DNA of 64,000 nt, taken from positions 64,001 to 128,000 of IMG/VR virus record IMGVR_UViG_3300034111_001103; one strand, given 5' to 3'. The position numbers and the translations under genes were made by a program. The stretch comes from a virus. How positions within the stretch are numbered: position 1 is the first letter of the stretch; each line of letters begins with the position of its first letter. The notes beneath the pieces are model-generated. The model saw only the letters and a program-made list of their open reading frames with translations, did no database searches and had not been told where the DNA came from. Shown one piece after another: positions 2,690-22,182 of this stretch.

Positions 2690-2920
2690 AACTCTATTCC
2701 CAAGGTAGAGCAAGTTGTAATATAATAAAGCCATATCATATCCTATGCAGTATAGTAAAGTGTACACTTTATGATTCTGTTGGTTGAGGTTAATAAATTA
2801 TTACAACTTGAATGCAGAGGGATAAAACAAAAAACTTAATAACTTTCCAAGTTGTTGAGGACACCAGTTTCTTATACTATATACCAGGGGAATTGCGTAT
2901 AAGTTTTAGGTGTAAAACAC
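2690..2920 (+). ncRNA. putative structured non-coding RNA(s)
   Basis: 12-bp IR 2711-2722/2799-2810; second multi-stem hairpin 2853-2919 (TGTT/AACA, ACACC/GGTGT, CTTATAC/GTATAAG); no ORF. Confidence 0.45.
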
Positions 2921-2924
2921 AAAA

Positions 2925-2968
2925 AACCTACTCTTATTATTAATATATAGGAGTAGGTTAATTTTTTG
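2925..2968 (+). terminator. intrinsic terminator
   Basis: AACCTACTC...GAGTAGGTT stem then T-run. Confidence 0.6.
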
Positions 2969-3019
2969 TCTACTTTTACTTTATTTTTTTAAACTCAATA
3001 AACAAACAATTTAAAAATC

Positions 3020-3274
3020 ATGAAAACTATATTATTAGATGAATTTACAAATACAATAGCTGTAGCTTGTTCAGAAGAGCAATGTATAATTAATTATTTT
3101 GACACTGTAGAACATGCTCTTAAAATGTATTCTGATGCAATAATTGACTCTGATTTAGATAAAATTAATATTAGTATTGATAATAATTCTGTTATTATTA
3201 CACTTACTAATCAAAAATTAATCCTAAATAAAGAACAAGCTTATATTTTAAGAAGTGTTCTTGAATCTATTTAA
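3020..3274 (+). CDS. hypothetical protein
   Basis: ORF with A-rich leader. Confidence 0.7.
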   Translation: MKTILLDEFTNTIAVACSEEQCIINYFDTVEHALKMYSDAIIDSDLDKINISIDNNSVIITLTNQKLILNKEQAYILRSVLESI

Positions 3275-4259: not shown

Positions 4260-4451
4260 ATGAAAATATTACTTACTTTATTCCTATTATTCCATATATT
4301 ATATTTATCTATAGTATTAATGAATATATTCTTTATTTGGTTTTATAATACTATAGAAGAAACAAATAGTAGAAATGATAGTATAGATATTATAAACTAT
4401 CAAAAGGCTTTAAATCCAATTTATTTAATTCAAATTATAAAAAAATTTTAA
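4260..4451 (+). CDS. small membrane protein
   Basis: Hydrophobic N-terminal half; similar short hydrophobic ORFs start near 4069 and 4454. Confidence 0.6.
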   Translation: MKILLTLFLLFHILYLSIVLMNIFFIWFYNTIEETNSRNDSIDIINYQKALNPIYLIQIIKKF

Positions 4452-4660
4452 AAATGATAACATTATCTATATTACTAGGAATACTATATTTTTGTTCTGG
4501 ATATTATTTATTTAGAACTGAATTTAATAGTACAAATTTATATTATCCTGCTTATATGTTTTTTTGGGTAACAACAGTATGTATAGGATTTGGTATACTA
4601 TACTTAATAAGCATATATTTACCTTAAAAATCAATTATTAAAAATAAACTAAAAAAAAAA

Positions 4661-5077: not shown

Positions 5078-5315
5078 AAAATCAATTATTTATAAACAAA
5101 TTTAAAAACAAAAAAAAATTAATAAAAATGAAAAGATCATATAACAAAAAAACAAACATTTGGAAATTCTCTCTATCTTGGACAATGTCTAAAATAATTG
5201 AATTTGTTAACAGACAAATAACTAAAGGAGCAAAACTAATAAAAGATTATACCTCTCAAAAAGGTAAAATATCTTTTGCTCTCCAATATTCTTAATTTTT
5301 TAAACTATAATTACA

Positions 5316-13210: not shown

Positions 13211-13381
13211 ATGGAAATTATAATAATAACAATATTTGCATTAATTCTACTATATTATCATTACAAACCTTTTTTAGAAAAACAACAAAATGGGGATTGG
13301 TTACTATGGTATAATGATCATGAAAAAATAATATCTGGTAGAAAATATATTTTAATTAAAAAAAGACATAAATATGACTAA
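13211..13381 (+). CDS. small membrane-anchored protein
   Basis: Likely start MEIIII; hydrophobic N-terminus. Confidence 0.55.
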   Translation: MEIIIITIFALILLYYHYKPFLEKQQNGDWLLWYNDHEKIISGRKYILIKKRHKYD

Positions 13382-19743: not shown

Positions 19744-20328
19744 ATGACACAAAAAATTAGTAGAGTTAATCTCAAAGTCATCTATGACAATGTTTGTCAA
19801 GATTGGAAAAATATAATAACTGATATGTTATTATGGAATGTAGAAAGTTCTATAGAAATAGAAGAAGAAACTATCTTAAAAGGATATAATCAAGCAAATT
19901 CTGAACAAAAAATATTATTAGAAAAATACTTTAAAATAAACACACCTAAAGACTTAACAAAAACATTAAAAACTTGGAAAGATGTGTTAAAATATGCTAA
20001 AGAAAAAGGATATAACTTTAAGTTACCTTATTCTGAAAAAACTCAAGTAAAAGAAGAAATATCTTTAAATGCTTTATGTAAAATACATTTATTAGCTAAA
20101 GTATTTAATGAAGATTGGACAGCAAATTTTAAAGACTCAACTCAATACAAATATTATCCTTGGTTTGAAAGAAAAAGTTCTGGGTGGGTCTTTAGTGTTG
20201 TTTATTATCGGGCTTCTGTTTCTTCTAGTGGCTGGGGTGCTCTTTCATACTTTAAAAGTTCAGAAATAGTAAATTATATCGGTAACAATAAAGAATTTGT
20301 AAATATTTATAATGAATATTTACAATAA
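19744..20328 (+). CDS. DGR target protein 1
   Basis: Contains VR1 near the C-terminus; paralog of 21454..21948. Confidence 0.9.
   Translation: MTQKISRVNLKVIYDNVCQDWKNIITDMLLWNVESSIEIEEETILKGYNQANSEQKILLEKYFKINTPKDLTKTLKTWKDVLKYAKEKGYNFKLPYSEKTQVKEEISLNALCKIHLLAKVFNEDWTANFKDSTQYKYYPWFERKSSGWVFSVVYYRASVSSSGWGALSYFKSSEIVNYIGNNKEFVNIYNEYLQ
20178..20249 (+). repeat. variable repeat VR1
   Basis: Aligns to TR1 with 17 mismatches, all at TR adenines, plus a 3-nt insertion. Confidence 0.93.
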
Positions 20329-20347
20329 AGTTAATTATTTTATATTA

Positions 20348-20416
20348 TTCTAGGTAGGTCTTTAATGATGTTAATTATCAGAATTCTAATTCTAATAGCT
20401 AGAGTACTCTAACATA
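20348..20416 (+). repeat. template repeat TR1
   Basis: Intergenic, AAT-rich, 23 adenines; enclosed by a 13-bp IR 20328-20340/20431-20443. Confidence 0.93.
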
Positions 20417-20519
20417 TTTTGTATTTAAAGAAATAATTAACTTATCCTATAGGATAAAAATCAAGAAATATTTTAAAAAGTGTTTGGTAGGTCTATTCTC
20501 GAAGAACATTTAAATTAAT

Positions 20520-21470
20520 ATGAAAAGAATAGGAAATTTATACAATCAAATATGTGATAGAAATAATATAGAATTAGCTATAAAAAATTCACAAAAAAGT
20601 AAGAAGAAAAATAAGAATGTTATAGAATTTAACAAAAATTATGAAAATAATTTAGAAATTTTAATAAATTTACTAAAAGAAGAAAAATATGTTATTTCAG
20701 ACTATAAAATAAAATATATTAAAGATGGAAATAAAATAAGGGAGTTAAAGATACTCCCTTATTTTCCAGATAGAATTATACAACATTGTATATTAAATAT
20801 AATATCTTTTACGTTATTAAAAACTTTTCCTACTAATACTTATTCAGCAATTAAAAATAGAGGTATACATAAGTGTTTGTACAAGTTAAAAAGTATAATA
20901 AATAAGTATGACTATTGTTTAAAACTGGATATTAAAAAATATTATGAAAATATAGATAATGACATATTAAAATCTTTTCTTTTAAAAAAATTTAAAGATA
21001 AACAATTATTAGATTTACTTTTTCATATAATAGACAAAGAAAAGGGATGTGTAATTGGCTCTTATTTGTCACAATGGTTTGGTAATTTTTATTTATCTTA
21101 TTTTATACACTATTTAAATGATAAAAAAGATATTAAAGTTTTAGTTTATATGGATGATATTGTTATATTAGGTAATAGTAAACAATTATTGTATGATTTA
21201 AAGTTAGAAATAATAGAATATTTAAGAACTAAACTAAAGTTAGAATTAAGTAATCATCAAGTATTTTCTCTTACACAAGGTATAGATTTTTTAGGCTACA
21301 AAACATTTAAAACACACATTTTAATAAGGAAAAGAATAAAATTAAATTTTATTAAAATGATTAAAACAAATTATAATGAAAAGTCAATTAATAGTTATTT
21401 AGGTTGGCTTTGCCACGGAAATACATTAAATTTACAACAAAAATACATTAAAAATGCAAAAAACAATTAA
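20520..21470 (+). CDS. DGR reverse transcriptase
   Basis: DRIIQH, LKLDIKKYY, IGSYLSQ (DGR-type GxxxSQ), YMDD, GIDFLGY. Confidence 0.95.
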   Translation: MKRIGNLYNQICDRNNIELAIKNSQKSKKKNKNVIEFNKNYENNLEILINLLKEEKYVISDYKIKYIKDGNKIRELKILPYFPDRIIQHCILNIISFTLLKTFPTNTYSAIKNRGIHKCLYKLKSIINKYDYCLKLDIKKYYENIDNDILKSFLLKKFKDKQLLDLLFHIIDKEKGCVIGSYLSQWFGNFYLSYFIHYLNDKKDIKVLVYMDDIVILGNSKQLLYDLKLEIIEYLRTKLKLELSNHQVFSLTQGIDFLGYKTFKTHILIRKRIKLNFIKMIKTNYNEKSINSYLGWLCHGNTLNLQQKYIKNAKNN

Positions 21471-21948
21471 TTTAACAAAAAAAGAAGCTATTAAATTTTA
21501 TAATAGTGCACAAGATCAAGGATTTAAAGATTTATTAGAAACAAATTTTGGTAAAGATTTCTGGAAACAAGAAATTACAGATTTAGTATATGATTTAGAT
21601 TCTTTAAAAGAATATTGTAAAAATAACAATATATCTTTTTCTTTACCTTATCTTTGTGATACTCAAGATAGTTTAGAAAAAACATTAAATGCTACTTACA
21701 TATTAGCAAAAGTTGCTAAAATATATAATAAAGGAACTATTTTAAATTGGAAAAACAATAATGAATACAAGTATTTACCTTATTTATATTTTTCTGGTGG
21801 TTCTGGGGTTGCTGCTGGTGTTTCTTTTTATTGGGATTCTGATTTGTTTGCTTCTTATTGTTTGTACTATAAAAACTCAAATTTAAGCACAAAATCTTAT
21901 AATAACTTTAAAAAATATTGGGAAGATTATTGGGGAGTAGAACAATAA
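21454..21948 (+). CDS. DGR target protein 2
   Basis: Contains VR2; LPY..LNA..AK.YN..NW.N..EYKY.PY shared with target 1. Confidence 0.9.
   Translation: MQKTINLTKKEAIKFYNSAQDQGFKDLLETNFGKDFWKQEITDLVYDLDSLKEYCKNNNISFSLPYLCDTQDSLEKTLNATYILAKVAKIYNKGTILNWKNNNEYKYLPYLYFSGGSGVAAGVSFYWDSDLFASYCLYYKNSNLSTKSYNNFKKYWEDYWGVEQ
21790..21868 (+). repeat. variable repeat VR2
   Basis: Aligns to TR2 with 18 adenine mismatches, one C>T and a 3-nt insertion. Confidence 0.93.
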
Positions 21949-21971
21949 TATAAAAAAGAGATAAATAAATA

Positions 21972-22047
21972 TTTTCTAGTAGTTCTAGGGTTACTAATGA
22001 TTCTAATAATTGGAATTCTAATTTGAATACTCCTAATTGTTTAAACT
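21972..22047 (+). repeat. template repeat TR2
   Basis: Intergenic, 23 adenines; enclosed by an 11-bp IR 21959-21969/22067-22077. Confidence 0.93.
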
Positions 22048-22182
22048 TAATTATAATACAAACAATTTTATTTATCTTAACCTATTGGTTAAAAAAACAA
22101 GCAAAATCTTAAAACAAATCCCTTAGTACCTTTAGTGTGGAAAAGGGATTTTTTAATTAAGTACAAAAATATAAAGTAAAAT

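Follow-up and report, generated by a model that had tools for sequence, protein, structure and literature searches.

How could a single reverse transcriptase (RT) serve more than one template? The question is raised by a diversity-generating retroelement (DGR) in a phage genome, IMG/VR virus record IMGVR_UViG_3300034111_001103. We analyzed positions 64,001 to 128,000 of that record (the window, 64,000 nucleotides (nt); all coordinates below are those of the window). The locus has one RT gene and two template repeats (TRs), each with a variable repeat (VR) in a target gene of its own. Mismatches between TR1 and VR1 and between TR2 and VR2 are almost exclusively at TR adenines, which together with the RT gene identifies the locus as a DGR. 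We found that both TRs lie within the same RNA scaffold and that this scaffold has been kept in homologs through compensatory changes in its stems. We consider it probable (roughly 85%) that each stretch is a non-coding RNA of a phage DGR that lacks the protein Avd, with the TR held inside a scaffold that, by analogy with a known DGR, would bind protein.

Two templates, each in a scaffold of the same kind

The two TRs share a common layout. A duplex of 12-14 base pairs (bp), P1, surrounds the TR and is abutted by a 5-bp hairpin, P2. A run of adenosines follows, then a single-stranded linker and a last hairpin, P3. All of these elements are on the + strand, as are all the listed genes of the locus. 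In cassette 1, TR1 (20348-20416, defined by alignment with VR1 and by a genome-wide scan for A-biased repeats) lies between the upstream arm of P1a (20328-20341), which begins on the last base of the target 1 stop codon, and its downstream partner (20430-20443). P2a (20442-20457; UAUCC-UAUA-GGAUA) abuts P1 and leads into the A-run and linker (20458-20477; AAAAUCAAG...), whose A columns are invariant or nearly so in the 80-cassette alignment described below, and then into P3a (20478-20511). In cassette 2, TR2 (21972-22047, from its alignment with VR2) is bracketed by the arms of P1b (21958-21969 and 22067-22078) and followed by P2b (22077-22092; UAACC-UAUU-GGUUA), the A-run and linker (22093-22115; AAAAAACAAG...) and P3b (22116-22151), after which come six U residues (22152-22157).

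Five of the six stems (P1a, P1b, both P2 hairpins and P3b) are perfect complements. These include the two different, slightly shorter stems that the original prediction had placed around the TRs (20328-20340/20431-20443 and 21959-21969/22067-22077). P3a is the exception. Its arms, AGTGTTT and GAACATT, had been proposed as a stem like that of P3b, but they are not Watson-Crick complements and pair only by way of two G-U wobbles. This stem can therefore form only in RNA of the + strand.

The two copies are ~80% identical from the downstream arm of P1 through the linker. When P1a and P1b are set in register, four A-T/T-A double swaps surround an unchanged G-C pair, and P2a and P2b differ by a single T-A to A-T swap, as had been noted. 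The outer stems of P3 are unrelated in the two copies: AAGUGUUU/GAACAUUU in copy 1 (8 bp, two of them G-U) and AAAUCCCUU/AAGGGAUUU in copy 2 (9 bp). They enclose cores that are alike, again as predicted, with RGUA, an 11-nt element and GAA (20486-20503 and 22125-22142). In copy 1 the core consists of GGUA (20486-20489), the element (20490-20500) and GAA (20501-20503); in copy 2 it consists of AGUA (22125-22128), the element (22129-22139) and GAA (22140-22142). Within the 11-nt element, positions 1 and 11 and positions 2 and 9 form G-C pairs in copy 1 and C-G pairs in copy 2, and U10 is bulged. GUA is invariant across 80 sequences of the wider family and GAA is at least 90% conserved. The loop-E/sarcin-ricin (bulged-G) motif has AGUA facing GAA, with a helix on either side. 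Copy 2 has this sequence signature, copy 1 has GGUA in place of AGUA, and the core may fold as such a motif.

Minimum-free-energy folds recovered P1, P2 and P3 in both cassettes. The overall folding energies were not unusual (z of -0.70 and -1.56 for the two cassettes), and A/T-rich inverted repeats of at least 11 bp with loops of 70-140 nt numbered 24 in the genome compared to about 17 in Markov shuffles. Taken by itself, a P1-like stem is thus near chance, and the case rests on the placement of the stems around both TRs and on covariation among homologs. TR/VR homology begins 2-7 nt past the upstream arm of P1, as expected if the duplex halts cDNA synthesis. The distance from the TR to the downstream arm is only about 14 nt. 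The minimum-free-energy fold of cassette 1 also has a 3-bp hairpin (20412-20414/20420-20422), which relatives do not share. At the 3' end of TR1, UAUUUU (20415-20420) could pair with GAAAUA (20430-20435) at the start of the downstream arm of P1a. This pairing might be an alternative to P1, either a switch or a template:primer duplex.

Each TR is in a non-coding stretch directly downstream of its own target gene. Target gene 1 (19744-20328, 194 amino acids (aa)) matches phrog_11581 in the PHROG search of the open reading frame (ORF) list and has VR1 near its 3' end (about 20178-20246, from the alignment with TR1). The RT gene (20520-21470) encodes a protein of 316 aa with matches to RVT_1 and phrog_1423 and with the motif IGSYLSQ, which we take to be a DGR signature. 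Target gene 2 (21454-21948, 164 aa) is a paralog of target gene 1, also matches phrog_11581, and has VR2 near its 3' end (about 21790-21865, by alignment). The phage record is complete, with 168,934 bp, direct terminal repeats and 24% G+C. A scan of the whole genome for further cassettes, which had been suggested as a check, turned up exactly these two and no third; the next-best matches to the R1 model scored at most 24 bits, and there was no further A-biased repeat.

Covariation and selection among relatives

Homologs of the RT number in the thousands. We gathered relatives with an alignment query; a single-protein scan of viral contigs yielded one locus. The wider family sample comprised 80 IMG/VR loci whose RT is 43-56% identical to that of the window. 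In about 75 of the 80, the same P2, A-run and P3 are found directly 5' of the RT gene, in the order ...ACCYU, a GCC-loop-GGC hairpin, AAAAAA, a linker, and a hairpin with GGUA, an inner hairpin and GAA.

Covariation in this family was strong. In a MAFFT alignment of 80 cassettes (A3), 90% of cells were paired, compared to 41-50% in controls in which the pairing partners were slid. The covariation score was 0.62 (at most 0.145 when slid), and 13 of the 14 pairs had double changes. Changes from U-A to U-G were common and, at two pairs of P3, occurred in 27 and 22 sequences. These make sense on the + strand only, because the other strand would have a C-A mismatch. P1 was detected in 66 of 78 loci at z < -2, with its upstream arm 91-126 nt upstream. 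The A-run was invariant throughout the family. The original prediction had described an A-rich linker with CAAG; the A-run of this linker is general, but CAAG is specific to the window lineage and the wider family has YAAC.

A second alignment, of 19 cassettes from ten AT-rich loci, had 87% of cells paired compared to 33-60% when slid, although this alignment was fitted to the model and is hence biased toward it. All 19 cassettes have an invariant G-C pair in P1 two nt from P2 (G20330-C20441 in cassette 1). Other P1 positions flip between A-U and U-A yet stay paired. For the inner pairs of P3 we counted only the 12 clean 11-nt elements, leaving out mis-parsed rows such as L101_b and L087_up. 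Pair 1-11 was G-C in five, C-G in four, A-U in two and U-A in one, and pair 2-9 was C-G in seven and G-C in five, with a bulged U. Compensatory change, first read from two copies, is thus heavy among homologs in P1, P2 and P3 alike, and the proposed comparison with homologous loci came out in favor of a conserved structure.

The closest relatives indicate that both cassettes are under selection, as the original prediction had suggested. Four loci (L083, L085, L086 and L087), with RTs 60-84% identical to that of the window, have the same gene order and have kept both cassettes. Mismatches are confined to TR adenines in the TR/VR pairs that align without gaps, which are both pairs of L085, both of L087, and the upstream pair in each of L083 and L086. 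In the downstream pairs of L083 and L086, 76% and 83% of mismatches, respectively, are at TR adenines. Scaffolds are 80-93% identical among these relatives, whereas third-codon positions of the RT gene are 69-74% identical. This difference indicates purifying selection on both scaffolds.

Relation to described RNAs and DGRs

Motifs RT-1 to RT-19 have been described near RT genes, and only RT-10, now Phage_DGR in Rfam, was tied to a DGR (Weinberg et al. 2017, PMC5737381). The window cassettes resemble RT-17 (RF03020), to which motifs RT-3 and RT-14 are related. RT-17 has the P2 hairpin, the A-run and a P3 with a GGUA...GAA internal loop and, like copy 1, is found just 5' of a DGR-type RT gene. 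The RT-17 consensus (a short hairpin, an A-rich spacer and a hairpin with a UGGUAG/UCGAA internal loop) was recovered in the alignment, in the columns of A3 and in the covariation, and 5 of 20 loci tested (L001, L005, L007, L033 and L053) passed the RT-17 gathering score of 40.4 bits, with 41-45 bits. Copy 1 ends 9 nt before the ATG of the RT gene, which is the RT-17 location, directly 5' of the RT gene; copy 2 is 3' of the RT gene and target gene 2. The Rfam model does not have the P1 that brackets the TR in the window cassettes. Within the 3.5-kb locus, the two best matches to an independent covariance model built without the window lineage (R2) were the window scaffolds, with 19.9 and 17.6 bits; the next match had 8.8. 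With default filters R2 missed copy 1, which was found with the filters off. By homology, the window RNAs are divergent members of the described RT-17-type family. The same scaffold was also observed 5' of the RT gene in crAss-like phage cr52_1 (L104, NC_055888, 2397-2491; 42.9 bits with R1 and 33.7 bits, below threshold, with RT-17), where it adjoins a tail protein annotated as similar to major tropism determinant.

The RT-Avd-RNA particle of the DGR of Bordetella phage BPP-1 has been solved by cryo-electron microscopy (cryo-EM) (Handa et al., bioRxiv 10.1101/2023.10.23.563531). Its RNA contains a unit, cPRT-Stop, on which cDNA synthesis depends and which terminates it in front of a duplex. 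The unit consists of this duplex, in which the spacer pairs with sequence 5' of the TR, together with a short stem-loop and with adenosines that make A-minor contacts with G-C pairs. The other elements are the Thumb Ring, which is single-stranded, a long RT-binding stem-loop that has interior loops and is located just before the RT gene, and, at the 5' end of the spacer, an Avd-binding stem-loop; a duplex bracketing the TR was reported in 207 of 278 DGRs (10.1101/2023.10.23.563531).

The order of elements in BPP-1 is that of P1, P2, A-run, linker and P3 in the window. Both window cassettes have a duplex between the two sides of the TR (12-14 bp) and a stem-loop abutting it, followed by five to seven adenosines that could dock by A-minor contacts. 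In BPP-1 the G-C pairs are at the stem-loop end of the duplex, just as the conserved G-C pair of the window is at the P2 end of P1. P3, with its conserved GUA/GAA interior loop and covarying stems, is comparable to the RT-binding stem-loop and may bind the RT. There are also differences. BPP-1 has Avd and an Avd-binding stem-loop, whereas the window phage has neither; the TR is about 14 nt from the duplex strand in the window and about 58 nt in BPP-1; the two RTs are 30% identical over 71% of their length; and BPP-1 has a single TR where the window phage has two. The mapping of mechanism onto the window is by architecture only, because no match to BPP-1 was found at the sequence level.

Several observations weigh against our reading of the locus. 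Rfam gave no match in the window at gathering thresholds. Copy 1 aligned over the full length of RT-17, RT-14 and RT-3 with only 14-20 bits (18.8 with RT-17), and copy 2 had no RT-17 match at E up to 10. R2 also had a 25.4-bit match inside a coding ORF (13239-13328, + strand), probably spurious and due to A/T-rich unpaired columns, so scores below about 30 bits are unspecific in a genome of 24% G+C. Phage_DGR (RF03022), with which BPP-1 itself scores 104.7 bits, had no match in the window at E up to 10. Conversely, BPP-1 had no match to the family model, and its Sp RNA had no sequence-level likeness to the window family. No homolog of Avd (PF05635) was found anywhere in the 169-kb genome, and the window cassettes had no Avd-binding stem-loop. 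VR1 and VR2 are each exactly one codon longer than their own TR (20217-20219 and 21810-21812), so they are not simple copies of the present TRs; the TR/VR pairs of L085-L087, unlike these, align without gaps. The extra codon could be a product of slippage or of TR/VR divergence since the last homing event. Finally, the scaffold had been proposed as the structure for RT recognition and priming. Covariation, conservation of both cassettes in relatives and the variable number and position of cassettes support this proposal, and the order of elements agrees with BPP-1. Our search for a template:primer duplex or priming adenosine found nothing convincing, only weak and unconserved options.

The core idea, DGR templates enclosed in a conserved RNA scaffold, has been published before, and our findings mostly confirm a known mechanism. 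What they suggest beyond the accounts of RT-17 and BPP-1 is a compact, Avd-less system in which every TR has a full scaffold, with one to three such units in relatives. They tie orphan motifs of the RT-17 type in Rfam to the templates of Avd-less DGRs, and extend the RNA architecture derived from cryo-EM to a large clade of phage DGRs without Avd. In the 80 related loci the interval between the TR and P1 is too short to hold an Avd-binding hairpin, and Avd may thus be dispensable across the whole clade.

Competing readings and the modular cassette

We weighed three other readings. One is that cassette 2 is a decaying duplicate, that its scaffold resembles that of cassette 1 by common descent, and that its last hairpin (9 bp and six U residues) is an intrinsic terminator of the operon containing the RT gene and target gene 2. 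UUUUUU does directly follow P3b, copy 2 has no match to an Rfam RT-x model, and VR2 and TR2 differ by a 3-nt indel. Nonetheless, relatives keep TR2 and VR2 with mismatches that are mostly or wholly at TR adenines, and scaffold 2 alone is 84-92% identical, again above the third-codon positions of the RT gene. Downstream cassettes also have compensatory changes (U-A to C-G in L086, and C to U, giving U-G, in L085), and the U-run is missing from those of L004, L087 and L102. Decay of cassette 2 is improbable given these data. A simple terminator scan found nothing at P3b because the loop is 18 nt; the lack of a conserved U-run in other downstream cassettes led us to reject termination as the main function of P3b.

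The inverted repeats might instead act as DNA, either as cruciforms or as signals for recombination or target recognition, like the hairpin next to the BPP-1 VR. P1, P2 and P3b are perfect Watson-Crick repeats that could form on either strand, but the wobble pairs of P3a and the family-wide U-A to U-G changes fit the + strand RNA, and the elements flank the TR, not the VR. We regard this as the least probable of the three. A cis-regulatory 5' leader of the RT mRNA, in which P2 and P3 would affect translation or stability and not bind the RT as part of a template RNA, is very unlikely as well. P2-P3 ends 10-25 nt before the RT start in most relatives, where a conserved AAAGCAAAGG follows; however, second and third copies are downstream of the RT gene or 2 kb upstream of it, beside a TR and not beside the RT start, and P1 ties P2-P3 physically to the TR. 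The conserved AAAGCAAAGG, which occupies part of the last 25 nt between P3 and the RT start in most of L003-L082 and is missing from the window lineage, resembles a ribosome-binding site and may be one, or may represent an additional RNA element.

If the stretches are template RNAs of an Avd-less DGR, as we favor, each cassette would be transcribed and would fold with its TR looped out between the arms of P1. The single 316-aa RT would bind each RNA separately, TR1 in cis and TR2 in trans, although TR2 could also be served from a read-through transcript. By analogy with BPP-1, the cPRT Stop unit would comprise P1, P2 and the adenosines that come after P2, and would position the template; these adenosines would dock, through A-minor contacts, at the conserved G-C pair near where P1 meets P2. 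The RT would bind P3, which with its invariant GUA/GAA internal loop would be the RT-binding stem-loop, and the A-rich linker would wrap the RT thumb. The adenine-mutagenized cDNA of each TR would end before P1 and then replace the VR of the adjacent target gene.

One RT gene serving several TR/VR pairs has been described before, the crAss case included, and in that respect the window DGR is like other multi-TR DGRs. The passages on these DGRs retrieved by term search judge the extra crAss pairs possibly inactive and mention no scaffold for extra TRs. Compared to the crAss case as those passages present it, the window family differs in that a full scaffold with covarying stems accompanies each TR, and in that the differences within most TR/VR pairs of relatives are exclusively A-directed. 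A scaffold of its own for every extra TR is the signature expected if recognition of the scaffold, and not proximity to the RT gene, selects what is reverse-transcribed.

We lean toward the view that a target gene, a 12-bp clamp, a TR and a scaffold of about 85 nt form a self-sufficient module that can be duplicated and is recognized in trans by a minimal, Avd-independent RT of 316 aa. Diversification would then proceed through two or three independent channels under a single enzyme, a naturally multiplexed DGR, and the clamp and scaffold would suffice to make any sequence a template. The RT is compact and the scaffold short, making them candidates for a minimal system in which multiplexed targeted mutagenesis could be engineered. 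What our analysis adds is that multi-TR loci have as many complete scaffolds as TRs, one for each, and that cassettes have spread as modules.

Relatives differ in how many cassettes they have (one to three) and in whether these are 5' or 3' of the RT gene. Such variation would be expected of a modular unit and is in keeping with the portable cassette of the original prediction. L100 and most other loci have one unit. In L004 and the window lineage the RT gene is flanked by a single unit on either side, L101 and L045/L046 have two upstream of it, and L102 has three target-TR-scaffold units. L102 is a related phage contig of 89 kb in which the cassettes (2849-3022, 4431-4593 and 5079-5256) are arranged around one RT gene, and each of the three has an A-biased TR/VR pair.

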